Shown here: positions 1 to 52,936 of the stretch, in pieces
Numbering within the stretch: the stretch's first letter is position 1
Layout of the letters: each line of letters opens with the position of its first letter
NCBI GenBank assembly: GCA_036009365.1
Contig: DASYLY010000091.1
Location: forward strand, 556-64,555
Length of the DNA stretch: 64,000 nt
Direction: 5' to 3'
DNA from: Solirubrobacterales bacterium
GTDB lineage: Bacteria; Actinomycetota; Thermoleophilia; Solirubrobacterales; 70-9
Program-made: the position numbers and the translations under genes
The notes under the pieces: generated by a model
Told to the model about the DNA's origin: nothing
Database searches by the model: none
The model's input: the letters and a program-made list of their open reading frames with translations, nothing else

Positions 1-1
1 C

Positions 2-198
<197 letters not shown>

Positions 199-199
<1 letters not shown>

Positions 200-747
200 T
201 GCCCCGGCGACTGCAGACGAAGCTGGAGGGGGTCATCCTGCTGGAGCCGGAGGTCCACGGCGACGAGCGCGGCTTCATGGTCGAGACCTTTAGCCGCGAC
301 GCCTGGGCCGAGCTCGGGCTCGCCGGCGAGTTCGTTCAGCACAACCACTCGCGCTCCTCACAGGGGACCCTGCGTGGGATCCACTTCCAGACTTCGCCGG
401 GCCAGGCGAAGCTGGTGCGCTGCTCGCGCGGCTCCGTCCTCGACGTCGCCGTCGACCTGCGCCGCGGCTCGCCGACCTTCGGCCAGTGGGAGGCACACCT
501 GCTCGACGACGAGCGCCACCGCCAGCTCTACGTCCCGGTCGGCTTCGGTCACGGCTTCGCGGTGCTCAGCGAGGTCGCCGACTTCGCCTATCTGCTCTCC
601 AGCATCTATGACCCGGCGACCGAGGCCGGTATCGCCTGGGACGACCCCGATGTCGGGGTCGACTGGCAGATCCCCGATCCCATGCTCAGCGAGCGCGACA
701 AGGCGGCACCTAAGCTGGCCGAGGTTGTCGACAGCTTGCCTTTCTAG
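199..747 (+). CDS. rfbC: dTDP-4-dehydrorhamnose 3,5-epimerase
   Basis: RmlC-type motifs GDERGFMVETF, GTLRGIHFQ and KLVRCSRGSVLDVAVDLR. The in-frame ATG at 199 overlaps the rfbB stop (TGATG). Confidence 0.9.
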
Positions 748-751
748 CGCC

Positions 752-1546: not shown

Positions 1547-1562
1547 GCGCGAGGATGCGCGC

Positions 1563-2273: not shown

Positions 2274-2278
2274 CCGCG

Positions 2279-3960: not shown

Positions 3961-3970
3961 CTCGCAGCTG

Positions 3971-7449: not shown

Positions 7450-7937
7450 TGGTCTCGTTTCCAGTTCTCGTTCAGGCCGATGGTGCCGGCGTGATTTACG
7501 GCGAAGCCCCACCTACGGTGCCGGGCAAGAAGACGGCGACCCACAATGAAGATGGAACCCCGGCGCACAGCTCGAATACCGATACCGGCGGCTCGACCGC
7601 ACCAGGCGGTTCCGGCGGCTCGGGTGATTCTGGTGGGTCTTCTGCAGGCAGTCCATCGACGGGTGCGAACGACAATCCAAGCACGGGTGGCAGCGGCGAG
7701 GCCCGCCAGGGCGATCAAGGCAAGGCCTCGACCGGATCCCAGCAGAGTGGCTCGGTGCACTCAGGCCAGCCCGTGAGCACCACCCAGCCGGACGACCAAT
7801 CTTCTTCTTCGCCCCTGGTTCCGATCCTGATCGCGATTGCCGCGTTGGCGGCGATCTCGATCGGTGTGGTCGTAGCCAGGCAGCGCCGGCAGCGCGGTGG
7901 CGACCCGGATGCGGCCGTTTCGCCCAAGGTGGGCTAG
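7368..7937 (+). CDS. secreted Ser/Gly/Thr-rich low-complexity protein with C-terminal TM anchor
   Basis: Signal-peptide-like N-terminus (LLVALSSVLALLALVSFPVLVQA-DG), a long S/G/T/Q-rich segment, then LVPILIAIAALAAISIGVVVARQRRQRGG. No LPXTG motif. Confidence 0.5.
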   Translation: MLGSRHQPARSSGPLLVALSSVLALLALVSFPVLVQADGAGVIYGEAPPTVPGKKTATHNEDGTPAHSSNTDTGGSTAPGGSGGSGDSGGSSAGSPSTGANDNPSTGGSGEARQGDQGKASTGSQQSGSVHSGQPVSTTQPDDQSSSSPLVPILIAIAALAAISIGVVVARQRRQRGGDPDAAVSPKVG

Positions 7938-7961
7938 CTCGATGTCGAGAGAGAGGAAGCT

Positions 7962-9083
7962 ATGAGGACCGTTCGCGCCTGCTTTGCTGCCCTTCTCGTT
8001 GCTGCTGCGCTCGGCTGTGTCGCTTCGACCGCGGCCGCCGCTCCGGCCAAGTTCTGGGGCATCGTCCCGCAGGCGATCCCGAGCGATGAACAGTTTCAGC
8101 GCCTCGCCCGCGGTGGTGTCGAAAGCGTCCGCATCCCGGTCGGCTGGGCCCATGTGCAGCCTAGCCGTGGCGGCGCCCTGGACTGGGCAGGCCCGGACGC
8201 CTTGATCGGAGCGGCCTCAAGGGCCGGGCTCGATGTGCTGCCCTTCATCACGGGCGCTCCGGCCTGGGCGATCCAGGAACTCCCCGTTCCCGGCACCGGC
8301 GGCCAGCTCAAAGCCCCTGGCCACTTGCCGATCTCCGGCAGTGCTGCCGGAGCCTGGAAGAGCCTGCTGGGAGCCGCCATCGCTCGCTACGGCCCCAACG
8401 GGGTCTTCTGGGCAGCGAACCCGGGCATCCCGCCGCGCCCGGTCCGCGCCTGGCAGATCTGGAACGAGCCCAACTTCAAGTACTTTGTCGCCCGCCCGAA
8501 CCCGGTCGAGTACGGGAAGCTGGTGAAGCTCTCTTATGCGGCGGTCAAAGCCGTTGACCCAGCCGCTCAGGTGATCCTGGCTGGTCTCTACTCGCGGCCG
8601 ATCGAGGCGATCCACAATTACAAACCGCCCCGCGCCTTCTTCGCCACCGACTTCCTCGAACAGATGTACAAAAAAGTGCCGGGTCTGAAGGGGAAGTTCA
8701 ATGGCGTCGCCCTGCACCCCTACACCGGCCGCTATAGCGGGCTGATTTCCAACATAGAAGCGCTGCGGACGGTCCTCAAATCCAACCACGATGCCAGCAA
8801 GGGTCTCTGGATCACCGAGCTTGGTTGGAGCTCGAAACCACCGACCGACGGCAACAGCTACGCCAAGGGCGTCAAGGGACAGGCCGAACAGCTACGTGGC
8901 GCCTTCTCGCTGCTGGAGCGCAACCAGGCGAAATGGAAGATCAAGCGCCTCTACTGGTTCTCGGTCGACGACCAGGACGGCACCTGCAACTTCTGCGATG
9001 GCTCCGGCCTTTTCGGCGAGGGCTTCAAGCCGAAGAAGGCCTGGTACGAGTACGTGAAGTTCGCCGGCGGCACCCCGAACTAG
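7962..9083 (+). CDS. secreted glycoside hydrolase, clan GH-A (GH5/GH39-like)
   Basis: Signal peptide; WQIWNEPN (acid/base Glu of the NEP motif) and LWITELGWS (nucleophile Glu). RBS GAGAGGAAG upstream. Confidence 0.65.
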   Translation: MRTVRACFAALLVAAALGCVASTAAAAPAKFWGIVPQAIPSDEQFQRLARGGVESVRIPVGWAHVQPSRGGALDWAGPDALIGAASRAGLDVLPFITGAPAWAIQELPVPGTGGQLKAPGHLPISGSAAGAWKSLLGAAIARYGPNGVFWAANPGIPPRPVRAWQIWNEPNFKYFVARPNPVEYGKLVKLSYAAVKAVDPAAQVILAGLYSRPIEAIHNYKPPRAFFATDFLEQMYKKVPGLKGKFNGVALHPYTGRYSGLISNIEALRTVLKSNHDASKGLWITELGWSSKPPTDGNSYAKGVKGQAEQLRGAFSLLERNQAKWKIKRLYWFSVDDQDGTCNFCDGSGLFGEGFKPKKAWYEYVKFAGGTPN

Positions 9084-9104
9084 CCGCTGCGTAAGATCGG
9101 TGGG

Positions 9105-12100
9105 TTGACCACCGACGCGAACAAGAGCACCAAGTCCGACCCGCTGGCGCCGTTCAGCGATCCGGTCAGGCGCTGGTTTGAGGCCTCCTTCGAGGGGCCG
9201 ACGCCGGCTCAGACGGGTGGCTGGGAGGCGATCGCAGCCGGCGACAACGCCCTGATCTGCGCTCCCACCGGCTCCGGCAAGACGCTGGCCGCATTCCTTT
9301 GGGGAATCGACAGGCTGGCGCGTGAGCCGGCGCGTGGCGAGGGCGTGCGCCTGGTCTATATCTCGCCGCTGAAAGCGCTCTCCTACGACATCGAGCGCAA
9401 CCTACGGGCGCCGCTGCGCGGGATCGGCGCCGACATCTCCGTTGGCCTGCGGACCGGCGACACGCCGCAGTCGGAGCGGCGGGCGATGCAGAAAAACCCG
9501 CCCGACATCCTCATCACGACGCCGGAGTCGCTGTACCTGATGCTCTCCTCTCAGGTGCGGAGCATCCTCGGCACGGTCGAGGCGGTGATCGTCGACGAGA
9601 TTCATGCGGTGGCGCAGTCGAAGCGGGGGTCGCACTTGGCCCTGACGTTGGAGCGGCTTGAGCATCTGGCACAGGGAGATATCCAGAGGATCGGGCTTTC
9701 GGCTACGCAGCGGCCTTTGGAGCGGATTGCTCAGTTCCTGGTGGGGCCGAAGCGGGAGTGCAGGATTGTTGATGCCGGCCGCAAGAAGGCTCTCGACCTC
9801 GAGATCGTCGTGCCGGTCGAGGACATGGCGGAACCCGGAGCCCCAGCTTTCCCCAGCGAGGATGGGTTGCCGCCGACGGAAATCGAGCCCAGCGCTCACG
9901 TGCGCAGCATTTGGCCGGCGATCTACCCGGAGCTCGTCAAGCTGGTCAAGGAGCACACCTCGACGATCATCTTCGTCAACAACCGCCGCGCCGCAGAGCG
10001 CTTGGCTAAGCGCATCAACGAGCTGGCCAACGGCGAAGACGAGCAGGAGCTTCCCGCCACCGAGCACGCGGGGCACTCGGGGGAAAGCTCTGCCGAGCCC
10101 CCTGCTGAGATCGCCCGCGCCCACCACGGCTCCCTGTCGCACGAGGAGAGGACGCTTGTCGAGGAGTTGTTGAAGTCCGGTCAGCTGCCGTGCCTCGTTG
10201 CGACGTCTTCCTTGGAGCTTGGAATCGACATGGGGGCCCTCGATCTGGTCATCCAGGTCGAGTCGCCGAAGTCCGTGAGCCGCGGCCTGCAGCGGGTCGG
10301 GCGTGCCGGACACGGGCTTGGCGAGACCTCCAAAGGCCGCATCTTCCCCAAGTTTCGCGGCGACCTGCTCGAGTGCGCCGTGGTGGCGCGGCGGATGCGC
10401 GAAGGGGAGATCGAGGAGACGGTGATCCCCCGCAACCCGCTCGACGTGCTCGCCCAGCATCTGGTCTCGATGGCGGCCCTCGACGAGTGGGAGGTCGACG
10501 AGATCGAGCGGCTGGTCACCGCCGCCGACCCCTTCCACGAGCTCTCCCGCGAGCAGCTGGAGAACGTGCTCGACATGCTCGACGGGCGCTACCCGTCGGA
10601 CCGCTTCGCCGAGTTGCGGCCGCGGATCGTCTGGGACCGCACCGAGGGCACGATCCACGGCCGCAAAGGCGCCCGCACCCTGGTCGTCACCAACGCCGGC
10701 ACGATCCCCGACCGCGGCCTCTACGGCGTCCACCTGCCGGACGGGCGTCGGGTCGGCGAGCTCGACGAGGAGATGGTCTACGAGGCCCGCGCCGGCCAGA
10801 CCTTCCTGCTCGGCGCGACCAGCTGGCGGATTGAGGAAATCACCCGCGACCGGGTCATCGTCACCCCTGCCCCCGGCGCCCCCGGCGCCGTCCCCTTCTG
10901 GAAGGGCGACGGGATCGGCCGCCCGGCCGAGCTGGGCAAGGCGATCGGCGCCTTCGCCCGCGAGGCGGTCTCACGGGAGCCGGAGGAGCTGGCCGCCGAG
11001 TACGACCTCGACCCGCGCGCCGCCCGCAACCTCGTCTCCTACCTGCGCGAGCAGCAGCAGGCGACCAAAGTCGTCCCCTCCGACGAGACGATCGTTGTCG
11101 AGCGCTTCCGCGACGAGATCGGCGACTGGCGCCTCTGCATCCTCTCCCCCTACGGCGGCCGCGTCCACTCCGCCTGGGGCCTCGCTCTGGCCGCCAAGAT
11201 CCGCGCCGAGCGCGACCTCGAGGCCGACGCGATCTGGTCCGACGACGGCATCGTCATCCACCTCCCCGATGCCGACGAGCCGCCGCCGGCCGACCTCGTC
11301 CTGATCGACCCCGACGAGCTCGAGGACCTGGTCGTCAGCGAGCTCTCCGGCTCGCCCTTGTTCGGCGCCCGCTTCCGTGAGAACGCCTCGCGCTCGCTCT
11401 TGATCCCGCGCGCCTACCCTGGCAAGCGCACGCCGCTCTGGCAGCAGCGGCTGAAGTCGCAGAGCCTGCTCGAAGTTGCCCGCGACTTCCCCCGCTTCCC
11501 GGTCATCCTCGAGACCTATCGCGAGTGCCTGCAGGACGTCCTCGACCTGCCCTCGCTGGCCGAGCTGCTGCGCAAGCTGCACTCGCGCCAGCTCAGCCTG
11601 GTCGAGGTCGAGACCCCGACCGCCTCGCCCTTCGCCTCCTCGCTGCTGTTCGACTACGTCGCCACCTACATGTACGAGGGGGACACGCCGAATGCCGAGC
11701 GGCGGGCGGCGGCGCTGGCGCTCGACCGCGACCTGCTGCGCGAGCTGCTGGGCCAGGAGGAGCTGCGCGAGCTGATCGACCCGGAGGCGCTGGAAGAGGT
11801 CGAGGCACAGCTGCAGTACCGGACCGAGGTCGGCCGCCCCGAAGACCGCGATGGTCTGCAGCAGGTGCTGCGCGGGCTCGGCGATCTGACCGCGGCGGAG
11901 TGCGATGAACGGGTCGCCGAGGGCTACTCGGCTGCCTCGATGCTGGAGAAGCTGGTCGCTGAGCGGCGGGTGGCGAAGGTGCGGGTGGCGGGAGAGGAGC
12001 GCTACATCGCCGGCGAGGACGCCGGCCTGTACCGCGACGCGCTCGGGGTGCCGCCACCGCCGGGGCTGCCCGAGACCTTCCTCGAGGACCACCCCGATGC

Positions 12101-42274: not shown

Positions 42275-42343
42275 CCCCCGGCTCCCTCCCCGCGCATCAA
42301 AGCCCGTAGAATCGCCCGTCCGGGGACCCCAAGCCCCTAGCTT

Positions 42344-42417
42344 GCGCCAGTAGCTCAGCCGGATAGAGCGTCGGTCTACGAAACCGAAGGTCACAGGTTC
42401 GAATCCTGTCTGGCGCA
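42344..42417 (+). tRNA. tRNA-Arg (anticodon ACG)
   Basis: GCGCCAGTAGCTCAGCCGGATAGAGC, anticodon loop CTACGAA, GGTTCGAATCC, acceptor CTGGCGC + A. Confidence 0.92.
42376..42416 (+). repeat. attL core (3' 41 nt of tRNA-Arg)
   Basis: ctacgaaaccgaaggtcacaggttcgaatcctgtctggcgc, identical to 51964-52004. Confidence 0.85.
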
Positions 42418-42488
42418 TAGACGTGATCCCGCTTGGGAAGCGGGTTTGCGGGGATTTGAGGCTCGGCCGGGAAGGCCGAAAAGAGCGC

Positions 42489-42509
42489 TGGGGCAACGCC
42501 TGGGGCAAC
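42489..42509 (+). repeat. two direct TGGGGCAAC boxes, 12-bp period (candidate recombinase arm-type sites, attL side)
   Basis: tggggcaac at 42489-42497 and 42501-42509. The same doublet is found at 50041-50061 and 51846-51866. Confidence 0.5.
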
Positions 42510-42644
42510 ACGAGGTCCGGGTAGAGGTTCGGCCTGGCCCTTGAGAGGGCGCTTCCCTCCACCTACGTTCGCCGCCGAAAGCACCCAACAAGCACCCCCG
42601 CGCTGCGCAAACAGCCGGGGGCATGGCACAGAAGGCGAGCTCCC

Positions 42645-42935
42645 ATGCACGACAAGGTTATGGGCGCGGGCGAGCAGAAGCTCGACTCGACCGCGGCCGA
42701 AGACGCACGCGACCAGGCGCAGGTTCTCCGCACGGCTCTGGACCTCTACCCGGCGACGCTGACGCTCGACGAGCTGGTCCGCGAGTTGACTGTTGCCTCG
42801 CCCGATTTCTCAGAGCAGGATCGAATCCAGCGAGCTGTCCGCGACCTGACCGCGGGCGGCCTGGTCCAGCGGATCGGCGATCTCGTCATGCCGACGAGGG
42901 CCGCGGTGAACTTCAACGCCCTGCCCCGCGAATGA
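42645..42935 (+). CDS. small winged-helix-like protein, island-associated (paralog of 52652-52936)
   Basis: Clear paralogy over about 65 aa with 52652-52936 (..LTLDELVRELT...RIQRAVRDLTAGGLVQRIGDLVMPTRAA.. vs ..LTMPELVEEMC...AVERAVRELIATGLVLRQGAFVVPTPAA..). ATGA overlap with the next gene. Confidence 0.6.
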   Translation: MHDKVMGAGEQKLDSTAAEDARDQAQVLRTALDLYPATLTLDELVRELTVASPDFSEQDRIQRAVRDLTAGGLVQRIGDLVMPTRAAVNFNALPRE

Positions 42936-43552
42936 CGGGCGGCGGAGGAAAGGTCGGGCGGGGGAAGCTGCGGCTCTTCGTCGCACTCGACCTGCCCGTG
43001 GCGGTGCGCCGCGATCTGAACGTGTGGCGACGGGCGGCGCTGACCGATCCGGCCCTTCGCTTCACCGAGGGGCCGCGAATGCTCCTTCTCTTCCTCGGCC
43101 ACCGACCGCAGCGGGAGGTCGTCCCATGCCTGGAGGCGATCCGAGAGCTGTGCGCAAGGGCGCCCGCGCCCCTGATCGAGCTGGCCGATGTCGAAGCGAG
43201 GGGCCGCCGGCCCACTCGCCCCCGGCTGTTCGCGCTGCCGGCAAGGTTGCCTGGCGTGGAAGTTCTCCAACTCGCCCTGCGCTCTGCTTTCGAGTCGCAG
43301 GGGCTGGCCTTCCACGAACCCAGGCAGCGGTCGTTCTGGCCGCACCTGACCGTCGCCAGGGTGGCGACCGAGCAGCGCCCGTCGCGCTGTCCGCTGCTGG
43401 TTCACGATCTGCCCGACCGCCCGCTCCCGGCTGGACTGCGAGAGCCGTTCAGAGCGGAGAGCGTCGGCCTCTACTTGTCTGAGCTGTGGCCGGACGGAGC
43501 GCGTCACCGGCTGCTGGGAAGGGCCGAGCTGGCGGCTGTTCCTGGTCGTTGA
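42932..43552 (+). CDS. 2H-phosphoesterase (LigT/ThpR)-like protein with degenerate first HxT motif
   Basis: N-terminus LRLFVALDLP (ThpR-like), second motif WPHLTVARV intact (43343-43354), but the first motif position reads PRMLLLFLG (43073-43099) instead of xHxTLxFLG. Confidence 0.6.
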   Translation: MTGGGGKVGRGKLRLFVALDLPVAVRRDLNVWRRAALTDPALRFTEGPRMLLLFLGHRPQREVVPCLEAIRELCARAPAPLIELADVEARGRRPTRPRLFALPARLPGVEVLQLALRSAFESQGLAFHEPRQRSFWPHLTVARVATEQRPSRCPLLVHDLPDRPLPAGLREPFRAESVGLYLSELWPDGARHRLLGRAELAAVPGR

Positions 43553-43612
43553 CGACGGGGTTGTCGCTGGGGTTTACCGGGGGGTTTCCACCGGGGTTGA
43601 CACGCGATTTGA

Positions 43613-43684
43613 GTTCGCACTGCGGCTCGCTCTGCACTTCGCTCTGTGGTTCGCACTGCACTTCGCACTGCAGTTCGCATCGCG
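43613..43684. repeat. 6 x 12-bp tandem repeat, consensus (G/C)TTCGC(A/T)CTG(C/T)(A/G)
   Basis: Units gttcgcactgcg / gctcgctctgca / cttcgctctgtg / gttcgcactgca / cttcgcactgca / gttcgcatcgcg, read directly. Located 310 bp upstream of the integrase start. Confidence 0.85.
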
Positions 43685-43992
43685 CCGCTCGGCAAAGCCC
43701 GCCTGGCCTCGTCCAGCCTCGCTTTCCGGCGCTTCCGGCGCGCTGACTTCTATATCCCGACGGGGGTTGGTCTCGAATCGCTCCTCCGTGGTGGCCTCCA
43801 CCGATCGCGGGAATCGTCCCGCCGCCGTCAGCCTCGCCGTGGCCTCTGCTGACCTTCGCCTTGTTGCCGTCGCGCTCCCATTCGGTCGCGCTCCGGCCTC
43901 CGGCATTCGTCCTGTTAACGTTTTGTCCGCGAACGTCAAACGGGGCGGCGTCGCGCAAACGACCCGCCCCACGGCTCACGAGGTGGAATCTC

Positions 43993-45177
43993 ATGAGCGT
44001 TTCCCAGGATACGTCGGCCCCCGCGGCCGAGCAGGGCTGCGGCGACAAGCGGCGGCTCGTCAAGACCAAGACCCCCAGCGTCTTCAAGCGCATCGACGGC
44101 ACGGGGAAGACCATCGGCTACGCCTGCGTCTCCGCAGCGCCGGCAGGCAGCGAAAGCGCCACGCCCGCACCTACGCAGAGGCGAAGCGGATCAAGCGCGA
44201 GAGCGAGACCGACCGCGATCGCGGCGAGCTGCAGGAGCGCAGCGCGATCACCCTCCGCCGCTACCTGGACGAGTGGGTCGAGCGCTATCGCGGCCAGGGC
44301 CGCCGCGGCTTCCGCGAGAACACCCGCGACGAATACCGCCGCCTGATCCACGTCTACGCCCGTCCCTACTTCCCGGCCCGCCTCAAGCTGGTCCACCTAC
44401 GCGCTGGCCCGCTTCGTGGATTGGCTGGCCGACGAGCAGGCGCAGGGCAAGCGCCTGGGCGACCGCACCATCGCCAACGCGACGATGCCGCTCCGCGCGG
44501 CGCTATCGACGGCGAAGCGCGAGGGCCTGATCCGCCACAACCCGGCGCAGGGGTTGTCGCTGTCGCCGCGCGAGCAGCTCCCCAGCGACGAGATCAAGGT
44601 CTTCACGCCCGAGCAGCTCGCGACCGTCATCGAGACAGCCCCAGAGCGCCACAGGCTGCTCTTGGAGCTGCTGGCGGCGACCGGCCTGCGGATCAGCGAG
44701 GCGATCGCCCTGCAGCGCCTCCACGTCCAGTTGGACAGCCCCGCGCCCGAGGTCTGCGTCCGCCGCGCGATCGTCAACGGCCGCACCGAGCCGCCGAAGA
44801 CCAAATACGGCCGTCGCGAGGTCCGCCTCCCGGCCTCACTGGCCACCAGGCTCCGCGCCCACCTCGCCGCCGAGCCCGATCAGGACTCCACGGCGATCCT
44901 CTTCCCCAACGACGCCGGCGCCCCGCTCGACCCCAGCAACCTCCGCCCCCGCGTCCTCAAGCCCCTCGTCAAGCGGGCCGGCGCCCCCTGGGCGGGCTTC
45001 CACACGTTCCGCCACACCTTCGCCTCGCTCCATCTCAGCCGGGGCACCAACCTCCTCCAGCTAAGCCGCGCCCTCGGCCACCACTCGCCCGCCTTCACGC
45101 TCACTCGCTATACGCATCTGTTGCCGGGCGATGAGGCGCCAGCACTGGACCTTCCGGCCATGAGTCCAACCGCGTAA
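43993..45177 (+). pseudogene. tyrosine recombinase/phage-type integrase interrupted by two compensating frameshifts
   Basis: N-terminus MSVSQDT..KTKTPSVFKRIDGTGKTIGY (frame 1), SAM-like core RSAGRQRKRHARTYAEAKRIKRESE...RRYLDEWVERY...ARLKLV (frame 0, about 44120-44397), catalytic domain ALARFVDWLADEQ...TGLRISEA...HTFRHTFAS...LGHHSPAFTLTRYTHL (frame 1). The frame-1 stop at 44344-44346 lies inside the shifted segment. Confidence 0.8.
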
Positions 45178-45382
45178 CGCCTTTCAAGAGCGCTCAAGCT
45201 CGGAGAGATGTTGGGCGGGAGGCCCGGGGGCGACCCGGACCTCCCTAAATGCTGGCCTCCCGATCAAGGGGCGCCCTACATGGGGGACAGCCACTCTGGG
45301 GCGGAGAATACCAACTATCCCATCTTCTTCAACCTGACTCAAAACGGACTCAAACCATAGCTTATCGCCTTCTAGGGGAGAA

Positions 45383-45437
45383 AGCACCTATATAGCACCT
45401 ATAAAGCATTTGCTTTGGACCCTAAGATCGCTATACT
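45383..45437 (+). promoter_or_regulatory. AT-rich promoter region with AGCACCTATA x2 (11-bp period) and a TATACT -10 box 6 nt before the ATG (leaderless-type)
   Basis: agcacctata at 45383-45392 and 45394-45403; TATACT at 45432-45437; ATG at 45444 with no RBS. Confidence 0.4.
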
Positions 45438-45443
45438 TAGCTA

Positions 45444-45863
45444 ATGAGCTTGCCCTATCAAAGCCAAGAGTTCGTATATGTCCCGGTTCCCGCTGTAAGA
45501 GTGGCAGAGGTTTTCCGGCTCCTAGCAGGCCTCCCAGAGGACACGGCAGAGGCGCCGGATTCGAAGCGGGTAGTCCGGCGCGTCTTTCTCGAAAGCGAAG
45601 AGAACTTCCGGGCCTTGCTGCGCTTCCTCGCGAGCCGTCCGGGGCAGTCGATTAGCACCGCGGAAGCGGCCGAGGCGCTGGGCCTGCCCAATGGCGCAGC
45701 GTCCGTAGCGGGCATGCTGGGTGCCTTTGCCCGGCGATCGAAGAACCGCTACGACGGCTTTTGGCCCTTTGAGCGCCTCTATAACCCTGCTCAAGACAGG
45801 GCCGAGTTGATGATGGAGGGCAATATTGCTGCGATCGTGGATGGCCTCGATCTGCCCTCGTAG
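45444..45863 (+). CDS. hypothetical protein with probable HTH segment (island cargo)
   Basis: 139 aa. SISTAEAAEALGLPNGAASVAGMLGAF is HTH-like. I recognise no family. Confidence 0.5.
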   Translation: MSLPYQSQEFVYVPVPAVRVAEVFRLLAGLPEDTAEAPDSKRVVRRVFLESEENFRALLRFLASRPGQSISTAEAAEALGLPNGAASVAGMLGAFARRSKNRYDGFWPFERLYNPAQDRAELMMEGNIAAIVDGLDLPS

Positions 45864-45903
45864 GCCGCCGGTTCAGGTAGATGTTGCCGAGCTAGCGGGG
45901 AGA

Positions 45904-46377
45904 TCATCGCGCGAGGATCCGAGCGATCCTTTCTGCGGCATCCGCAGACGTCTCATGCTCCCAGACCCTAACCACGGCCCATCCTGCCTCACCCAGCGCA
46001 GCATTGTTGAATCGATCACGCTCCATATTTCGAGCGAGCTTGGCGCTCCAATAGGAGACGTTGGTCTTGGGGCTCGTTCCGTGGTCTGGGCATCCGTGCC
46101 AAAAGCAGCCATCCATGAAGACGGCGACCTTCTGGCGGCGAAAGACGATGTCCGCTTTGCAGCGCAGTCCCTTCAGCGGCTTCTGGTCGACGCGATACCG
46201 CAAGCCGCGCCGGTGAAGCTCCGAGCGAAGGGCCAGCTCGGGGCGGGTATCGCGCTTGCGGTTGCCCTGCATGGCTGCTTTGACGGCAGGAGAAGAGGCC
46301 GAAGGAGCCTTGGGAACGACGGTGGTGGGCCGCTTGCCGCCCGTTCCATCGGGGGGACTTTCTAGGTTGGCGGGCAT
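45904..46377 (-). CDS. vsr: very-short-patch repair endonuclease
   Basis: RKRDTRPELALRSELHRRGLRYRV...ADIVFRRQKVAVFMDGCFWHGCP...YWSAKLARNMERD...GWAVVRVWEHE. The start is ATG 46377 or the internal ATG 46272. Confidence 0.85.
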   Translation of the reverse strand: MPANLESPPDGTGGKRPTTVVPKAPSASSPAVKAAMQGNRKRDTRPELALRSELHRRGLRYRVDQKPLKGLRCKADIVFRRQKVAVFMDGCFWHGCPDHGTSPKTNVSYWSAKLARNMERDRFNNAALGEAGWAVVRVWEHETSADAAERIARILAR

Positions 46378-47506
46378 GGATGCGATCTCCCTCTTCTCAG
46401 GAGCGGGCGGGCTTGACCTTGGTTGCGAGGCGGCCGGTTTCGAGACGCGTGCGGTCGTGGAGATGGAGGAGATCGCACGCAAGACGATCCTCTCAAACCG
46501 CCCCGAGTTCTTTCCCCAGCTTCGAGACGAGGCGGTGTTTGCCGACATTCTCGAGACCGATCCTCAGGACCTTCTTGAGCGGTCTGGGCTAAGTCAAGGA
46601 GAGGCGTCCCTACTGCACGGGGGGCCACCTTGCACGCCCTTCTCCAAGTCTGGCTATTGGCTTGCTTACAAGCGAGCTGGAGAAGATCCTCGGGCAAGCC
46701 TTCTCGACGAGTACGTGCGGATGCTGCGGGGCCTTCAGCCGAAGGCATTCCTCATGGAGAACGTCTACGGCCTCGCGTACCGCAATCAGAACCGCGCTGT
46801 GCTTGAGCGGTTCTTGCGACGGACCCGCGCGGCGGGCTATGTCGTCGAGTTCCGGATAATTCTCGCGGCGGACCTCGGCATCCCTCAGCTTCGTCAAAGG
46901 CTCTTCTGTGTAGGGATACGGCGCGATCTGATTCCGGGCGCCGGAAAAGGTTGGGAGTTCCCATGGCCCGAGCCCACTCATTCGGGTCCGCACGAGACGC
47001 GGACCGGCTGGGACAAGGAGTTGCCGCTCCACATAAGCGCTGGGCAGGCATTGGCGTCTCTGCCCGATGATGCGAATCCGCCTGAGCCCGAGGAGGTTGT
47101 CTCAGGCACTTACGCGGAAGCTCTTAAAGCCGTTCCCAGCGGCGAGAACTACCTGTTCTGGACGGCTGAGCGTGGTCACGACAAGCCCCGTTTCAAATGG
47201 CGCTCGCGCTATTGGAGCTTCCTGCTGAAGCTCCATCCGGATAAGCCATCCCCGACGATCCAGGGTCAGCCTGGACCGTGGGTGGGGCCTTTCCATTGGG
47301 ACAACAGGCGCCTGCGTGTTGCCGAGGTCAAGAGGCTGATGACCTTTCCCGATGCTTTTACGGTCTTGGGGTCTCGAAGGGAGCAGCAACTCCAGCTCGG
47401 CAACGCCGTGCCGCCGGAGCTTGGACGGGCGGTCGCAACTGCCGTGGCAGGCGAGCTAAGGCGCTTGGACTGTGCTCCCTCGCCAGAGCTCGCCCTGGCT
47501 GCCTAG
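46376..47506 (+). CDS. DNA (cytosine-5)-methyltransferase
   Basis: Motif I FSGAGGLDLG, motif IV GGPPCTPFS, motif VI LMENV, motif VIII QLRQRLF, motif X GNAVPPEL. Confidence 0.9.
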   Translation: MDAISLFSGAGGLDLGCEAAGFETRAVVEMEEIARKTILSNRPEFFPQLRDEAVFADILETDPQDLLERSGLSQGEASLLHGGPPCTPFSKSGYWLAYKRAGEDPRASLLDEYVRMLRGLQPKAFLMENVYGLAYRNQNRAVLERFLRRTRAAGYVVEFRIILAADLGIPQLRQRLFCVGIRRDLIPGAGKGWEFPWPEPTHSGPHETRTGWDKELPLHISAGQALASLPDDANPPEPEEVVSGTYAEALKAVPSGENYLFWTAERGHDKPRFKWRSRYWSFLLKLHPDKPSPTIQGQPGPWVGPFHWDNRRLRVAEVKRLMTFPDAFTVLGSRREQQLQLGNAVPPELGRAVATAVAGELRRLDCAPSPELALAA

Positions 47507-47564
47507 AACTCACCCCACAAGTCTGAGGTTTCCGAGTGTCGGGACGCGCGGTTAGCTTTCCGGC

Positions 47565-48632
47565 ATGGGGATCAGGCTCGAAGACCAAGCTTTGCTTCTA
47601 ACGCTCGATGACGCGCTCGCGCTGGCGCGATCACCCGAGGAGCTGCCGGCGGTGTGGATCGCCCGCGTGGAGCGGCTCGGCAGCCTGGGAATCAAGACCT
47701 ACATCGCCGCGCTGGGTGGCGCGCTCCTCGCGAAGGCGACTGATCCTCGAGTGGACAGTCTCGCCCAGGATGGAGCCGCGGGGCCGCGCGGATACAGCCT
47801 GCGGAAGGCGGCGGAGTTCCTAGCCGAGCAGAACAACAGTCGCTATGACCTGGGTGCGAGGGGGCGGTGGCCCCTTAACAACAGGCCCTTCCTTGGGGGG
47901 CCAGCGCGAATCGACGAATTCACGAAGATCTCTGGAAGGGCGCGACCGGCGTATGAAGCCTTTCTCGACGCGCTTCGAGATCTAAATCGCCTCGAGCGTC
48001 CCGAAGCCCTTTCAGCCCTGTCGTCTTTCCTCCGCGTGCGGATGGATGTCCAAGAGGTCGAGCGAACGGAAGCCCGCGCAACCCGGCAACTGGAAAGCGA
48101 TGTTGCGCTCGGGGATCTCGTCGGAATTGTCGATCGGTTTGTTCGATCTGCCCCAGAAGGGGGACGACGCGCGCAAGCCCTGGCTGCTGCCGTCTTGGAT
48201 TGTGCGTTCGATGAGGTTGATCTTCAGCCGATCAACAGCCCCCATCCGGGCGATGTCCGGGTAATGCTGGATGGCCAGATTGTCCTCGCGGTTGAGGCAA
48301 AGCAGCTTCCGGTCGGCGAGGCTGTGGCGTCAGAGCTGTCGCGAGAGGCGGCCGAGCTTGGCGCCGACTTGGCGCTGCTCGTGGTGATCGCCGAGAAGCA
48401 CGCGCCCCTTGATCGTGATCGCGTCCAAAGAGAGGCGCTGCATAGCGACGGAACGCTGCTCGTCGTCTGCGAGAGCGTGTTGGAGTTGATCTGTTCTGCT
48501 GCGGTTCTTTCTGGAACGCCAGCCGCTCGAATAGAGGAGGATCTACCCGGCGCATTCGCTGGGCGGTTGCGAGAGATCGGGACTAGCAAGCAAGGTCAAG
48601 ATGAGTGGAGGCAACTGGTCGAGGATCGATGA
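47565..48632 (+). CDS. putative type II restriction endonuclease (PD-(D/E)xK-like) cognate to the m5C methyltransferase
   Basis: Sits immediately downstream of the MTase. HPGDV-x13-EAK (..PGDVRVMLDGQIVLAVEAKQ..) fits a PD...ExK nuclease core. I recognise no other family. Confidence 0.5.
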   Translation: MGIRLEDQALLLTLDDALALARSPEELPAVWIARVERLGSLGIKTYIAALGGALLAKATDPRVDSLAQDGAAGPRGYSLRKAAEFLAEQNNSRYDLGARGRWPLNNRPFLGGPARIDEFTKISGRARPAYEAFLDALRDLNRLERPEALSALSSFLRVRMDVQEVERTEARATRQLESDVALGDLVGIVDRFVRSAPEGGRRAQALAAAVLDCAFDEVDLQPINSPHPGDVRVMLDGQIVLAVEAKQLPVGEAVASELSREAAELGADLALLVVIAEKHAPLDRDRVQREALHSDGTLLVVCESVLELICSAAVLSGTPAARIEEDLPGAFAGRLREIGTSKQGQDEWRQLVEDR

Positions 48633-48635
48633 CGG

Positions 48636-49991
48636 TTGGTCAGCAGCCCCGTCTGCGTTCATCTCACTCCTCTAATGTCCACCGCTCGTATCGAACCCAT
48701 CTACCGTCCCTTCGATGAGGGGCGATTTCTCTTGTTTGATGGGCCCCTTGCCCTTCAGGGCCAGGGCGAGTCGCGGTCGCCGGCTCCTGGGCAGATCGAA
48801 CTCCAGCTAGATCTTGCTCCAAGGCTACGCGCCCATTTCTTCGATTCGGGCGCGGTGAGAGCCCTCTTCTTTGCTCAGGAGGGCGACTCCATCCTCACCG
48901 TCTCTCTGCCGGAAGGGGCGGATCTGATGCCTCCTTCGCCTTCGGCTGTTGGGAGCAGAGAGCGGCGTTCTCGCGGGGAGTTCCCCACTGCTTCGATGCG
49001 GGTCGGCGATCTCGATTCCGTTACGCGAATCGTCTTCCACATCAGCGGTGCCCTGAAGGTAATGGGCCTAGCTCGCGAGCTGGACGATGGAGGTCGACAG
49101 GTTCAGGTCGACTTCGCCCTGCCCGGTTGGGATCTGGCGATCGCCCCTCATAGTCCGGAGACAGATCAAGACGCCGACTTTGTAGCGGTTGTTAGGGCGA
49201 CGCCCACCTCATTGCCGATTTCAGCTGACGATGTCGATCGCCTGAAGCGGCGTCTCTTTCTTCTCCTGAGCTTTCTTGCCAATCGTGAGATCGGGGTCGG
49301 GCCGATCTGCGGCATGACAGGGGAGCGGGTCGTGTGGGCAGAGTGGGGGGCGCCGCGCTTGATGCCCGGGAGACCGGGTATCAAGTGGTGCCCCGATCTG
49401 CTCGTCCCCGATGCGCTCCCCGTCCTGGCCAAGGGGTGGACGTCGCTCTCTGCGGACGCGGCGATGGAGAAGATCCTCGACCGCGCGATCGGGCTATCGC
49501 TGGGTGCGAATGCCCGGGAAGTTCTCGACGTGAGGATTCCGATTGCATGTGCCGGTGCTGAGCTACTTGCTTGGACCGTTCTGCAGCGTGAAGGCTGGCT
49601 TGTTCGGGGTGATGAGCAGCGCGCTCTCCGCGCTGCCGGAACCCTTCGCCTGATGCTGCGATGGGCAGGAATCGCGACCGAGATTCCAGCGCACTTCGAC
49701 CAGCTTCGAGAGCGCCGTGACAAACGCACCCGTGAAGGTCAGAAGGGCTGGGAGGGCCCAGAGCTTCTTTTCGACATTCGAAATCGGCTCATGCACCCGC
49801 CCAAGAACCTGGATGACCCAGAGTGGCCCGATGGAGGCGAACTCCTCGAGGCATGGCAGCTCGGGACTTGGTATCTCGATCTCGCCTTGCTCCGCTTGTT
49901 GAACTACCAAGGCGAGTACTGGTCAAGACTGCGCTTGAATCGATATGACACGGATCTTGAGCCAGTGCCTTGGAATCAATCCACTAGCTGA
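48636..49991 (+). CDS. unknown 451-aa protein with C-terminal RNxxxH (HEPN-like) motif, coupled to the R-M operon
   Basis: Starts 4 nt after the REase stop (TTG 48636; alternative ATG 48675). FDIRNRLMHPP (R382-H387, nt 49779-49796) is followed by a predicted amphipathic helix [21 protein letters not shown]. Confidence 0.55.
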   Translation: MVSSPVCVHLTPLMSTARIEPIYRPFDEGRFLLFDGPLALQGQGESRSPAPGQIELQLDLAPRLRAHFFDSGAVRALFFAQEGDSILTVSLPEGADLMPPSPSAVGSRERRSRGEFPTASMRVGDLDSVTRIVFHISGALKVMGLARELDDGGRQVQVDFALPGWDLAIAPHSPETDQDADFVAVVRATPTSLPISADDVDRLKRRLFLLLSFLANREIGVGPICGMTGERVVWAEWGAPRLMPGRPGIKWCPDLLVPDALPVLAKGWTSLSADAAMEKILDRAIGLSLGANAREVLDVRIPIACAGAELLAWTVLQREGWLVRGDEQRALRAAGTLRLMLRWAGIATEIPAHFDQLRERRDKRTREGQKGWEGPELLFDIRNRLMHPPKNLDDPEWPDGGELLEAWQLGTWYLDLALLRLLNYQGEYWSRLRLNRYDTDLEPVPWNQSTS

Positions 49992-50040
49992 TTTGGCAAC
50001 CCGCAAGCAGATTGACACCCTGAGCCTTGAGCTTCGCCCA

Positions 50041-50202
50041 TGGGGCAACAAATGGGGCGACATGCCCCACAGATTCCAGCCGATCCCAGCGGGACTCGAT
50101 CCGCCGCAAACCGCTTGAACCCACGCCCCACGTAGCCCAGCCGACCCACCGTCTAGGGCTACAAAGCCGATCGTGACCTTCCCAGTGGGAACCGAAGGTC
50201 AC
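50041..50202 (+). repeat. copy A of the 130-bp right-arm repeat plus a degenerate att core (internal attR')
   Basis: 50041-50170 is about 92% identical (10 mismatches by hand) to 51846-51975. The att core is broken by a GTGACCTTC(50173-50181)...GAAGGTCAC(50194-50202) inverted duplication. Confidence 0.75.
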
Positions 50203-50341
50203 TTCTTCGACAATTGCCATGGTCGCGGCGCCTCAGGTCGGGCGAAACTTCTCCCACGAGAGACCGGATGCCTCTTCTTCTCCCTCCGTCCCAGTTTTCG
50301 CTCCGGCAGCTCGGTTTTGACCCGGAGGAGGAGATGAGCTG

Positions 50342-50557
50342 ATGGACATCGCAGAGGCGAAAGCAAAGCTCGAAGCGGTCCTTGACGAGCTCGCGGAGGC
50401 TGGCTTCTCGGTTTGGGGGTGGGACGATGGGTCGATCCAGATCGCGCACCTGAATGAGCCGAGCATCGCCTGTGCCCCCCGTCACGTATCGCTCGATGTG
50501 GGCCGCGACGTCAACGGGGATTCCGAGGAGGTTCGGGAGGGGCGGGAGCGCTTGTGA
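50342..50557 (+). CDS. small hypothetical acidic protein
   Basis: 71 aa with a strong RBS GGAGGAGGAG 6 nt upstream. It competes with the antisense ORF 50159-50593, which lacks an RBS. Confidence 0.4.
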   Translation: MDIAEAKAKLEAVLDELAEAGFSVWGWDDGSIQIAHLNEPSIACAPRHVSLDVGRDVNGDSEEVREGRERL

Positions 50558-50573
50558 GTGCCGCGCAGCCCCT

Positions 50574-50599
50574 TGTTTCATGTATCGAAACATGAAACA
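50574..50599. promoter_or_regulatory. perfect 10-bp inverted repeat TGTTTCATGT-n6-ACATGAAACA upstream of the AbiEi-like gene (candidate operator, or terminator of the upstream ORF)
   Basis: Read directly. Ends 9 nt before ATG 50608. Confidence 0.45.
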
Positions 50600-50607
50600 A
50601 TAGCCTT

Positions 50608-51114
50608 ATGTTGAAGGGGCAGGACGTGGTTGTGTTGCTGAAGCTGCTCGGCTTGGACGAGCCGTTTCCCGTGCGCGACCTTGCAAGCCAGCTTGGCTTC
50701 GACGTGGCGGGCACCCACCGTGCCATGCGTCGCCTCGACGAAGCCGGTCTCTATTCGGTTGAGCGGCGGAGGGTCTATCGAGCTGCGGCCGAGGAGTTCC
50801 TGATCCACGCCGCCAAGTTCAGCTTCCCCCCACGCTGGGGGTCCGAAGTGCGGGGTGTACCCACGTCCTGGGCTGCTGAGCCGCTGAGGGCAGAGCTCGC
50901 CGAGTCCGGTGGCTTGCCTCCGGTGTGGCCCTATGCCAAGGGAACGGTGCGCGGTCTCGGGTTGGAGCCGCTGCACGCGATGGCTCCCGGGGCAGCGCTC
51001 GCCGATCACGCGCTGTGGCAGCGCCTGGCATTGGTCGATGCGCTCCGGAGCAACGACAGCGCCCGCATAACCCAGCTCGCGGAGAAGCTCCTGAAGGAGA
51101 GGGTCGGGTCGTGA
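50608..51114 (+). CDS. winged-helix (MarR/AbiEi-like) putative antitoxin/regulator
   Basis: VVVLLKLLGLDEPFPVRDLASQLGFDVAGTHRAMRRLDEAGLY is a wHTH. The stop overlaps the start of the nucleotidyltransferase gene (GTGA). Confidence 0.6.
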   Translation: MLKGQDVVVLLKLLGLDEPFPVRDLASQLGFDVAGTHRAMRRLDEAGLYSVERRRVYRAAAEEFLIHAAKFSFPPRWGSEVRGVPTSWAAEPLRAELAESGGLPPVWPYAKGTVRGLGLEPLHAMAPGAALADHALWQRLALVDALRSNDSARITQLAEKLLKERVGS

Positions 51115-51818
51115 GCATCGCGATGCTTGAGCGGGCCGCGCAGGAGTTGGCCCCGTTCCTCGACGAAGTTGCCTTCGTCGGTGGAGCGACCATCGCACTC
51201 TGGATCACCGACCAGGCGGCTCCTGAGCCACGGGTGACGAAGGATGTGGACCTCGTAGTCGAGGTTGCCTCGCGTGCTGCCTGGTACCGCTTCGAGGAGC
51301 GCCTTCGCGACCACGGACTTCGCAACGACGCATCGAGCCGCGTGATCTGCAGGTGGAGAGCCGGTAGCGACGGCGACGAACTCCTGGTCGACGTGATGCC
51401 AGCCGATGCAGCGATCCTCGGTTTTGAAAACCGATGGCTGGGCTTGGCGCTTGAGTACGCAGAAACGCTGCCGCTGCCGTCTGGCCAGCGGATACGAGCG
51501 ATCTCGCCGCCCTACCTGCTTGCGACGAAGCTGGAGGCATGGAGCGGCCGCGGAGGCGGCGATCACCTCCGCAGCCACGACCTCGAGGACGTGATCCGGC
51601 TGGTCGACGGGCGAGCCGAGGTCGTCGGGGAAGTCAGTGACGCTTCCGATGATCTCCGCTCTCTTCTATCCGGAGAGATCGCGACTCTCCTCGACCAGCC
51701 TAGGTTTCTGGACGCGATCGACGGAACTGTCATCGGCTTCGGACGCGGGAGCTCTGGAGGCGGGGATCGCGTCGAGGAGATTGTCTTGCCCCGTCTCCGT
51801 GCCCTCGCGGGACAGTGA
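51111..51818 (+). CDS. nucleotidyltransferase-fold protein (AbiEii/DUF1814-like putative toxin)
   Basis: FVGGATIAL-x17-TKDVDLVV (NTase G[GS]...DxD) and LLATKLEAW...SHDLEDVIRL (AbiEii-like motif III context). Confidence 0.65.
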   Translation: MSIAMLERAAQELAPFLDEVAFVGGATIALWITDQAAPEPRVTKDVDLVVEVASRAAWYRFEERLRDHGLRNDASSRVICRWRAGSDGDELLVDVMPADAAILGFENRWLGLALEYAETLPLPSGQRIRAISPPYLLATKLEAWSGRGGGDHLRSHDLEDVIRLVDGRAEVVGEVSDASDDLRSLLSGEIATLLDQPRFLDAIDGTVIGFGRGSSGGGDRVEEIVLPRLRALAGQ

Positions 51819-51845
51819 TCCCGACTCGCGGGAGGGCAGTCTTCC

Positions 51846-51963
51846 TGGGGCAACAAATGGGGCAACATGCCCCACAGATCCCAGCCGATCCCAGCGGGAC
51901 TCGATCCCCCGCAAACCGCTTGAACCCGCGCCCCACGTAGCCCAGTCGACCCACCGCCTCAGG
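51846..51963 (+). repeat. copy B of the 130-bp right-arm repeat (includes the TGGGGCAAC doublet and the GGGGCA-aca-TGCCCC palindrome)
   Basis: See copy A. Directly abuts attR. Confidence 0.75.
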
Positions 51964-52004
51964 CTACGAAACCGAAGGTCACAGGTTCGAATCCTGTCTG
52001 GCGC
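51964..52004 (+). repeat. attR core (41-bp copy of the tRNA-Arg 3' half)
   Basis: 41/41 identical to 42376-42416. The preceding bases differ from the tRNA, so it is not a second tRNA gene. Confidence 0.85.
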
Positions 52005-52254
52005 GTCTCTTGTCGTTGTGCTTGTCCTGATCGGCCAGCTCCTCAGCCAGCCGGGCAAGCTCGGAGATCTCGACGTCGAGGCTGCGGGCGATTGCAGCTA
52101 GGACCTTCCAGGTCGGGTTGCGCCGGCCGCGCTCGATGCCGGAGAGGTAAGTCCAGTGGATGCCGGCGGTGGCGGCGAGACCCTCGACGGTTAGTTCCCG
52201 CTTGGTCCGCAGGTGGCGGATGACGGCGCCGAGCTGGGCTTGCGTTGGTTCCAC
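51979..52254 (-). CDS. XRE-family HTH regulator
   Basis: LGAVIRHLRTKRELTVEGLAATAGIHWTYLSGIERGRRNPTWKVLAAIARSL. The last 8 codons and the stop lie inside the att repeat. Confidence 0.7.
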   Translation of the reverse strand: MEPTQAQLGAVIRHLRTKRELTVEGLAATAGIHWTYLSGIERGRRNPTWKVLAAIARSLDVEISELARLAEELADQDKHNDKRRARQDSNL

Positions 52255-52269
52255 GCGATGGACTCAGGG

Positions 52270-52554
52270 TCAGCTTGAGGTGGGGTCCGTCGGGCTGGGC
52301 CGAGAGCTTTCCCGCTGTCGGTCGGCCAGTTCCTCCGCTAGAAGCACAACCGCCGAGACTTCGATGTCAAGCGCCTCGGATAGGGAGCGAACGATGTTCC
52401 AGCTCGGGTTGCGCTGCCCTAGCTCGATGCCCGAGAGATAGGTGGTGTGGATTTCCGCCTTGCCCGCTAGCTCTTCGATGCTGAGGTCGCGCCGTTTGCG
52501 AAACCAGCGGATGGCATTGCCGAGCCGGGCTGGAGTTGGCGTCGTGGTCGGCAC
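52270..52554 (-). CDS. XRE-family HTH regulator (tandem paralog)
   Basis: LGNAIRWFRKRRDLSIEELAGKAEIHTTYLSGIELGQRNPSWNIVRSLSEAL. GTG 52554 was chosen; the longer ORF to 52737 overlaps the divergent gene. Confidence 0.7.
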   Translation of the reverse strand: MPTTTPTPARLGNAIRWFRKRRDLSIEELAGKAEIHTTYLSGIELGQRNPSWNIVRSLSEALDIEVSAVVLLAEELADRQRESSRPSPTDPTSS

Positions 52555-52651
52555 GCCCGGGAGCCTTCCGCCGCCGTGTCGATCTGACCATAGCCTATAG
52601 TCTTGGTCCGTCGAGGGGGCGAATTTATGGCTCCCACGACTTGGACTTCCT

Positions 52652-52936
52652 ATGCACGACGAACAACGTCGGCGGCGCGATCTGCCATCCGCCCGCAGGG
52701 ACGCGATGGTCGAAGGGGCTGCCCTCGCGCTCCTCATCGAGTGCCACCCGGATCTGCTGACGATGCCGGAGCTGGTCGAGGAGATGTGCAGCGGCTCGAA
52801 GGATTCCGATAGGCGCGATGCCGTCGAGCGCGCCGTCCGCGAGCTGATAGCTACCGGTCTTGTGCTCCGCCAGGGCGCCTTCGTGGTCCCGACCCCGGCG
52901 GCACTCCGAGTCGGCGAACTCGAGCTCGGGCTGTGA
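52652..52936 (+). CDS. small winged-helix-like protein (paralog of 42645-42935)
   Basis: Paralogy as described for 42645-42935. GTGA overlap with the downstream RHH ORF. Confidence 0.6.
   Translation: MHDEQRRRRDLPSARRDAMVEGAALALLIECHPDLLTMPELVEEMCSGSKDSDRRDAVERAVRELIATGLVLRQGAFVVPTPAALRVGELELGL

Follow-up and report, generated by a model that had tools for sequence, protein, structure and literature searches.

What does a protein do that is encoded directly behind a restriction endonuclease (REase) gene, and does it belong to the restriction genes at all? This question is raised by an open reading frame (ORF) of 451 amino acids (aa) in a 64,000-nucleotide (nt) stretch of contig DASYLY010000091.1 (Solirubrobacterales bacterium, assembly GCA_036009365.1), hereafter referred to as the window. 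The ORF is located downstream of a type II restriction-modification (R-M) operon, and an original prediction, made from the letters alone, had proposed that its motif FDIRNRLMH marks a HEPN-type ribonuclease, which would act with the R-M operon as a two-layer defence module. In the analysis presented here, the protein is best explained, with a probability of about 0.6, as a stand-alone ApeA-like HEPN ribonuclease, which would serve as an anti-phage effector independently of the R-M system stacked with it.

The N-terminal region of the protein had been described as matching nothing recognisable; the protein itself, however, belongs to a catalogued family. Judged by sequence, it is a member of the YopA family, which is listed in Pfam. 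A word-indexed search returned 51 relatives with 40-100% identity to the target, all but one of them carrying the precomputed Pfam annotation PF27216 and some also PF26308. In gene tables these two are named YopA_C and YopA_M, correspondingly, and the family is named after YopA of Bacillus prophage SPbeta; the Pfam copy used for our scans was without both models, and the YopA assignment is that of the precomputed annotation. Apart from this, tblastn against 50,697 phage records revealed a single match, which was yopA of SPbeta itself (E 3e-8), and BLASTP aligned the target with SPbeta YopA over 252 aa at 26% identity (E 7e-23), the YopA motif reading FRNKIVHP. An exhaustive profile search recovered 2,790 representatives of 50%-identity clusters at E<=1e-3, 2,110 of them at E<=1e-10. 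All named relatives were labelled either ‘hypothetical’ or ‘YopA central domain-containing protein’, and in the literature searched there was no link of the YopA family to HEPN or ApeA. It should be added that one metagenomic representative, P0177 (792 aa), has its YopA-like module at aa 352-779, after an N-terminal extension that matches fragments of class I Glu/Gln tRNA synthetase (tRNA-synt_1c, Anticodon_2); this may be a genuine fusion, which would point to tRNA binding, or an artefact of merged gene calls.

The motif was found where the original prediction had placed it, FDIRNRLMH corresponding to aa 379-387 with the codon of R382 at 49779-49781 and that of H387 at 49794-49796. As such, the bare motif may be due to chance: when the target protein was shuffled 20,000 times, at least one Rx4-6H occurred in 83% of the shuffles and R[NDH]x3-5H in 16%. 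Its conservation is not compatible with chance, and the motif is meaningful because it is conserved family-wide, not because it is present. In the alignment of 35 close homologs R382, N383, H387, P388 and P389 were all invariant, and so was P445-W446 (EPVPW). The pattern Rx4H was kept in 128/128 full-length family members, with the arginine followed by asparagine in 120 of them, by arginine in four and by aspartate or histidine in the rest. Furthermore, in a set of 86 diverse members, to which SPbeta YopA and a plasmid protein of Methylophaga belonged, the only invariant columns were E309, R382, H387, P445 and W446, with N383 nearly invariant; the pair of arginine and histidine is thus conserved in homologs, as a catalytic role had been expected to require. 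The region around the motif (aa 373-425) was the most conserved segment of the protein, and aa 14-190 the least.

Structure prediction places the motif in a HEPN-like position. The AlphaFold2 (AF2) model of the full-length protein, built with the homolog alignment, reached a predicted local distance difference test score (pLDDT) of 90.5 and a predicted template modelling score (pTM) of 0.90, and a second model, of aa 250-451 alone, was equally confident (pLDDT 93.4). The modelled C-terminal helices span aa 254-271, 275-291, 297-318, 374-386 and 400-421, with a short-helix insert at 326-366. In HEPN domains, the motif is found at the end of a helix and the start of the loop before the last helix, an insert lies between helices 2 and 3, and helix 2 bears a conserved acidic residue (PMC3710099). 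The predicted structure matches this layout both in the insert 326-366, located between the putative helices 2 and 3, and in the motif, which ends the helix 374-386 and is followed by the loop 387-399; the long helix announced for the sequence after the motif is seen in the model at 400-421. Moreover, E309, situated in the helix 297-318, fits the role of the helix-2 acidic residue, and E309, R382 and H387 together with N383 would be arranged as in the active site of a HEPN ribonuclease.

The same models shorten the part of the protein that had been taken for an N-terminal region of unknown nature: instead of about 370 aa it comprises about 190-250 aa, since the conserved helical domain begins near aa 251. 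Within it, aa 14-190 showed a mean identity to the target of 0.34-0.35 in close homologs and 0.17-0.21 in diverse ones, and many distant relatives matched the family profile from about position 186 onward only. The conserved module appears to begin in the central segment aa 191-250, which probably equals Pfam YopA_M.

The resemblance to a particular HEPN protein comes from profile comparisons. ApeA is an experimentally studied single-protein defence with N-terminal, Mid and HEPN domains (10.64898/2026.01.26.701840, 10.64898/2026.03.20.713152). Scanning of the 86 diverse members against Pfam at E<=0.1 gave seven weak matches in all, of which two were to HEPN_Apea and one to ApeA_NTD1 (E 0.049). 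With 54 further members and E<=0.5, we obtained 18 matches to HEPN_Apea (best E 0.0013), one to HEPN_RiboL-PSP and one to ApeA_NTD1, so that HEPN_Apea was matched below threshold by 20/140 scanned members. In one of them, P0196 (48% identical to SPbeta YopA), ApeA_NTD1 aligned at aa 59-266 (profile 54-251 of 271, E 0.0082, 16.1 bits) and HEPN_Apea at aa 316-406 (profile 35-124 of 136), both in collinear order. HEPN_Apea was also the only Pfam family matched by the family consensus (11.8 bits), the motif and the last helix falling on profile positions 84-133/136; when consensus sequences of family sub-clusters were compared with Pfam as well, this weak match of the overall consensus was the only one to HEPN_Apea. 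PADLOC, run on the 86 members, reported no ApeA match at E<=0.1, and on Pelobacter plasmids pPRO1/pPRO2 (~130 kb), the guessed location of one listed ApeA UniProt entry, no ApeA-like gene was seen.

With 24,736 models to choose from, chance hardly explains why two ApeA models recur, and do so in their proper order. Because the bit scores shown are below the cut-offs and the sequences are related, the matches are to be taken as evidence of remote kinship, not of membership, and in this sense the likeness to the ApeA-like class suggested in the original prediction was supported. In the structural comparison with the Protein Data Bank (PDB), HEPN proteins (AbiV, HepT and Csm6) made up 10/25 listed Foldseek matches of the C-terminal model, none of them significant; AbiV took ranks 1-5, 8 and 9, and HepT reached a target-normalised template modelling score (TM-score) of 0.51-0.54. 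The PDB copy searched was probably without the ApeA cryo-electron microscopy entries, none of which was among the matches.

On these grounds we read the YopA family as a probable compact, distant relative of ApeA, and for the target we infer a HEPN fold, ribonuclease chemistry, dimerisation, sensing by the N-terminal part, a tRNA target and abortive infection. HEPN dimers of ApeA assemble into rings, and tRNA anticodon loops or phage RNA are cleaved (10.64898/2026.01.26.701840, 10.64898/2026.03.20.713152). If the protein works like ApeA and other HEPN defence ribonucleases, two copies of it would pair via their HEPN domains and form a composite, metal-independent ribonuclease site. An infection-derived cue would be sensed jointly by the variable N-terminal part and the HEPN domain; the activated enzyme would then cut RNA, most likely tRNA anticodon loops, whereupon translation would stop and phage growth would be aborted.

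A number of results weigh against this interpretation. Foldseek with the full-length model gave nothing significant (best E 0.055 in PDB and 0.037 in BFVD, TM-scores <0.15), nor did the C-terminal model compared with PDB (best E 2.6, probability <=0.15), and the fold comparison that had been suggested as a check on the HEPN assignment therefore produced no significant HEPN match. A sequence-profile search of PDB with the target yielded chance matches to ribosomal protein S7 only, and scans of the target itself against Pfam, NCBIfam, PADLOC (E<=1) and PHROGs gave no match. All ApeA bit scores shown (HEPN_Apea 11.8 and 13.2, ApeA_NTD1 16.1) lie below the Pfam gathering cut-offs, which are 24.4 bits for HEPN_Apea (PF18739) and 25.5 bits for ApeA_NTD1 (PF18862); the sequences matched are kin to one another, which deprives the matches of independence, and the motif with the helix that follows it may account for most of the signal. 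The literature search returned no paper on YopA function and no experimental data for any family member, and a pattern-limited scan of IMG/VR viral contigs no close relatives. Finally, in Paraclostridium and Romboutsia (Peptostreptococcaceae; L037, L038 and L039) the homolog occupies a conserved place among housekeeping genes that is free of mobile and defence genes within 8 kb, and the survey of neighbourhoods was performed without a matched control, so that the defence association drawn from it is qualitative. Of the ribonuclease reading as originally proposed, the conserved motif, its placement and the likeness to ApeA thus hold, whereas a significant match to any HEPN protein was not obtained.

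The position of the gene relative to the restriction genes was re-examined at its 5' end. The ORF starts with TTG and is closed by TGA at 49989-49991; the REase ORF ends with TGA at 48630-48632, and three bases (CGG) follow before the TTG. The database protein P0001 (438 aa), from a Solirubrobacterales metagenome-assembled genome (MAG), is identical to the target but begins at ATG 48675, and the N-termini of homologs align at M14; by this alignment the ATG is the likelier start, and the gap between the REase gene and the target is accordingly either 3 or 42 nt. Co-transcription with the restriction genes is plausible, because the genes share one strand, the gap does not exceed 42 nt and no terminator-like site was found in it. 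The statement that the ORF begins 4 nt after the REase stop, on the same transcript, can hence be kept for the position, with three bases in between, while the shared transcript is plausible only.

To describe the genomic surroundings of the family, all ORFs within 6 kb of the gene were clustered in 26 non-redundant loci (the target and 25 others). The sole widely shared neighbour was a homologous tyrosine integrase, present in 15/26 loci at distances from 20 nt to 5.7 kb and on either side of the gene. In the actinobacterial clade of the target, the expected association with defence was supported, relatives being found in integrase-borne islands beside defence genes (Table 1). Gabija was called by PADLOC in L015 and L018 (GajA with best E 2.5e-193, and GajB), and in L001 and L011 the corresponding genes matched Pfam OLD-like_TOPRIM and UvrD-type models; some of these four are related islands and represent fewer independent events than four. 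Other neighbours among the homolog loci were AbiGi, and N6_Mtase with a DpnII-type REase. Across 16 actinobacterial loci (L015-L033), two of the 119 neighbour ORFs matched Pfam YaaC (PF14175, best E 3.3e-14).

Outside this clade, SPbeta yopA is situated in the accessory region of the prophage, with yonT, a RES-domain gene and a superinfection-exclusion gene nearby, and on the Methylophaga plasmid an integrase and insertion sequence elements come after the gene. In L040 (Oceanobacillus chungangensis contig, 1-9287) the homolog belongs to the cargo of a Tn7-like transposon (TnsA, TnsB, AAA_22/TniB-like ATPase, TniQ/TnsD-like protein), where it follows a DUF5986 gene and a helix-turn-helix (HTH)/Peptidase_M78 gene.

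Between 45 and 53 kb of the window, G+C is lowered to 0.61-0.65, against about 0.70 otherwise. The 3' 49 nt of tRNA-Arg (42368-42416) recur at 51956-52004 with 94% identity, and the region 42343-52004 is composed of two tandem islets at tRNA-Arg(ACG), as the tRNA 3' repeat stands at the far end and a 137-nt end sequence occurs twice. The first islet (about 7.8 kb) contains, in order, the tyrosine integrase, a winged-helix-like ORF, Vsr on the reverse strand, the C5 methylase, the SacI-like endonuclease and the YopA-like gene; the internal end copy starts 50 nt past the target stop, which makes the target the last gene of this islet. An intact 413-aa integrase homolog from L004 aligned with the window integrase in frame +2, then +1, then +2, and the latter is either a pseudogene or a MAG assembly error; the island may be immobilised, because its integrase is broken by two frameshifts.

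Several further genes of this region should be mentioned. A possible island regulator is the 139-aa ORF between the integrase and Vsr (45444-45863), which weakly matches DUF6416 and winged-helix models (E 1.5e-4 at best). The second islet (50608-51818) encodes an AbiE-like pair, in which the winged-helix protein corresponds to PADLOC PDC-M21A (E 2.7e-33) and the nucleotidyltransferase, with a start probably at M67 near 51123, to PDC-M21B (E 1.1e-63) and Pfam AbiEii. Two ORFs of about 95 aa (42645-42935 and 52652-52936), each located after a copy of the tRNA or attachment site (att), are 40% identical (E 6e-16), and two adjacent XRE-type HTH genes on the reverse strand (51979-52254 and 52270-52737) are 48% identical (E 1e-25). 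The paralogous small genes hint that more elements of a related kind have left remnants past the distal att.

Table 1. Features of the target gene, of the island around it and of homolog loci from the neighbourhood survey (L numbers). Coordinates refer to the window.
Feature	Coordinates	Strand	Evidence
YopA-family ORF, 451 aa (TTG) or 438 aa (ATG 48675)	48636..49991	+	ORF listing, sequence, P0001 PF27216, homolog alignment
N-terminal beta-rich domain, aa 14-190, putative sensor	48675..49205	+	AF2 strands aa 25-190, high pLDDT
Central segment aa 191-250: helix 197-215, beta-hairpin 220-237	49206..49385	+	AF2; SPbeta YopA BLASTP match starts at aa 197
C-terminal all-helical HEPN-like domain, aa 251-425	49386..49910	+	Both AF2 models, weak Foldseek and HEPN_Apea matches
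E309 codon, candidate HEPN helix-2 acidic residue in helix 297-318	49560..49562	+	Invariant in 86 members
RNRLMH (R382, N383, H387), predicted HEPN catalytic motif, followed by P388-P389	49779..49796	+	Sequence, conservation, model
C-terminal tail aa 426-451, invariant P445-W446 (EPVPW)	49911..49988	+	Invariant columns
tRNA-Arg(ACG), integration site	42343..42418	+	ARAGORN, Rfam, repeat
Tyrosine integrase, two frameshifts	43990..45177	+	Pfam Phage_integrase; tblastn of intact L004 integrase
Vsr very-short-patch repair endonuclease, divergent from methylase gene	45904..46548	-	Pfam Vsr, E 3.7e-18
C5 cytosine DNA methyltransferase, TTG 46256, likely start M41 near 46376	46256..47506	+	Pfam DNA_methylase aa 41-397, E 5e-52
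SacI-like type II REase, directly 5' of target, same strand	47565..48632	+	Pfam RE_SacI E 5e-18; PADLOC REase_II E 2.3e-29
Internal island-end copy: 137-nt repeat 50041-50177 and degenerate tRNA 3'/att fragment 50190-50210	50041..50210	+	Repeats, alignment
Distal island end: second 137-nt copy 51846-51982 and 49-nt tRNA-Arg repeat 51956-52004	51846..52004	+	Repeats, alignment
L001, L011, L015, L018: Gabija (GajA, GajB) directly upstream of YopA-like gene, same strand			
L005: N6_N4 methylase (N6_N4_Mtase), ResIII			
L007: PIN_12			
L012: Mrr (Mrr_cat) neighbour			
L013 (77% relative): DNA methylase, Vsr, OLD-family ATPase, GmrSD			
L014 (65% relative): integrase directly upstream			

The arrangement in the window could also mean that the protein is a dedicated second layer of the SacI-like R-M pair, triggered for instance by inhibited or overwhelmed restriction, like PrrC with EcoprrI, and working only in that operon. 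The shared strand and the short gap of 3 or 42 nt without a terminator-like site would agree with such a role; HEPN families including ApeA have been reported as embedded in R-M operons (PMC3710099), and several homologs stand beside restriction-type genes (N6_N4_Mtase/ResIII; Mrr_cat; DNA_methylase/Vsr/GmrSD; N6_Mtase/DpnII-type REase). Nevertheless, a homolog of this REase or methylase was found beside the gene in 0/25 other loci, the integrase being the only conserved neighbour; the closest relatives (77% and 65%) adjoin GmrSD and an OLD-family ATPase, or directly follow an integrase, and many family members have no R-M gene nearby. The linkage to the restriction genes is not conserved, the concept of a single module of R-M and abortive infection was not supported, and we consider a dedicated partnership quite unlikely: the gene looks like an independent single-gene system, which happens to stack with restriction genes, and not like their dedicated accessory. 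It is hardly credible, on the other hand, that the island is simply degraded and the motif a chance match within a hypothetical ORF that is ordinary or itself decaying. This would be in line with its frequency in shuffled sequences and with the frameshifted integrase, but the ORF is intact and of full length, its fold is predicted with confidence, and none of the residues that are invariant in this family of thousands is missing from the target; this explanation is effectively refuted by the conservation data.

A role outside defence, for a HEPN-like or merely helical protein engaged in maintenance or regulation of mobile elements or in processing of cellular RNA, with RNxxxH serving binding or another chemistry, deserves more attention, although we regard it as doubtful. 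The tyrosine integrase is the one recurrent neighbour, and sometimes directly adjacent; against a functional tie to it, its distance and orientation vary. The gene of Paraclostridium and Romboutsia is a stable chromosomal one, and the Peptostreptococcaceae homolog is widespread in metagenomes (P0216 is found in 86 blocks of the collection), while SPbeta yopA is placed among accessory, toxin and exclusion genes. Fold and sequence searches returned no significant match that would prove ribonuclease function; yet the repeated sub-threshold similarity covers both ApeA domains, and a variable N-terminal domain combined with a conserved, catalytic-looking triad would be the usual pattern of defence effectors. 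A toxin-antitoxin reading was rejected, as there was no conserved small partner gene among the 26 loci.

Extending the interpretation of the target as an ApeA-like effector to the whole family is a more tentative step, to which we would give slightly less than even odds. The YopA family, with at least 2,790 50% clusters in Actinomycetota, Bacillota and Pseudomonadota, would then be an unrecognised single-gene anti-phage system and a miniature sister family of ApeA, in which a fast-evolving sensor is joined to a HEPN ribonuclease; it would move about as cargo at the edges of integrase islands, Tn7-like transposons and prophages and be missed by the current defence-finder models. PADLOC models indeed flagged neither the target as ApeA-type nor any of the 86 scanned members. 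ApeA-type single-protein HEPN immunity is an established concept. If the proposal is true, ligand-sensing ribonuclease immunity of this type also covers a branch of smaller and much more diverged proteins that is common in soil Actinomycetota, and a large family of ‘hypothetical’ or ‘YopA domain-containing’ proteins, including a gene of the model prophage SPbeta, gains a testable function. In its poorly conserved N-terminal domain the family would offer new infection sensors, and the adjacency to the restriction operon in the window would represent stacking of independent cargo on one small island, not a conserved two-layer module.

Among the known systems, PrrC, RloC, AbiV, HepS, DARNA (PD-T7-3) and HepT share with the target the Rx4H motif, the logic of a sensor plus an effector as proposed for the target, and the carriage on prophages or islands; the profile search of PDB and Foldseek gave no significant match of the target to such other HEPN abortive-infection ribonucleases. 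PrrC is sometimes found beside R-M genes, as the target is, but differs in having an ATP-binding cassette ATPase and in binding EcoprrI. HepT needs the MntA antitoxin, and the identity of the target with either DARNA or HepS was rejected, since the HEPN domain of DARNA is N-terminal and HepS is a small protein consisting of HEPN only. SPbeta YopA, similarly to the target, has 438 aa and an RNxxxHP motif and is carried by a mobile element with accessory genes; it comes from another phylum and from a prophage instead of a tRNA island, and its N-terminal part of about 185 aa was left unaligned by BLAST.

The closest parallel is ApeA. Like the target, for which the layout is a predicted one, it is one polypeptide in which a HEPN-type domain at the C-terminus is preceded by a middle segment and by an N-terminal part that is not catalytic, and it is encoded by a single gene; correspondingly, the 26 loci of the target and its relatives show no conserved neighbour except the integrase. 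In Pfam the two are separate, the family of the target as YopA_M/YopA_C and ApeA as ApeA_NTD1 (PF18862) with HEPN_Apea (PF18739), and ApeA is longer, with about 600 aa vs about 440 aa. Its HEPN domain carries insertions, and its decameric rings, which cleave tRNA, have a deoxydinucleotide pocket between the N-terminal and HEPN domains (10.64898/2026.01.26.701840). The motif of Ec1ApeA is RNKITH (10.64898/2026.03.20.713152), and RN-x3-H is common to all three proteins, as RNKITH in Ec1ApeA, RNRLMH in the target and RNKIVH in SPbeta YopA. Furthermore, ApeA and YopA-family genes are both found in defence and R-M neighbourhoods.

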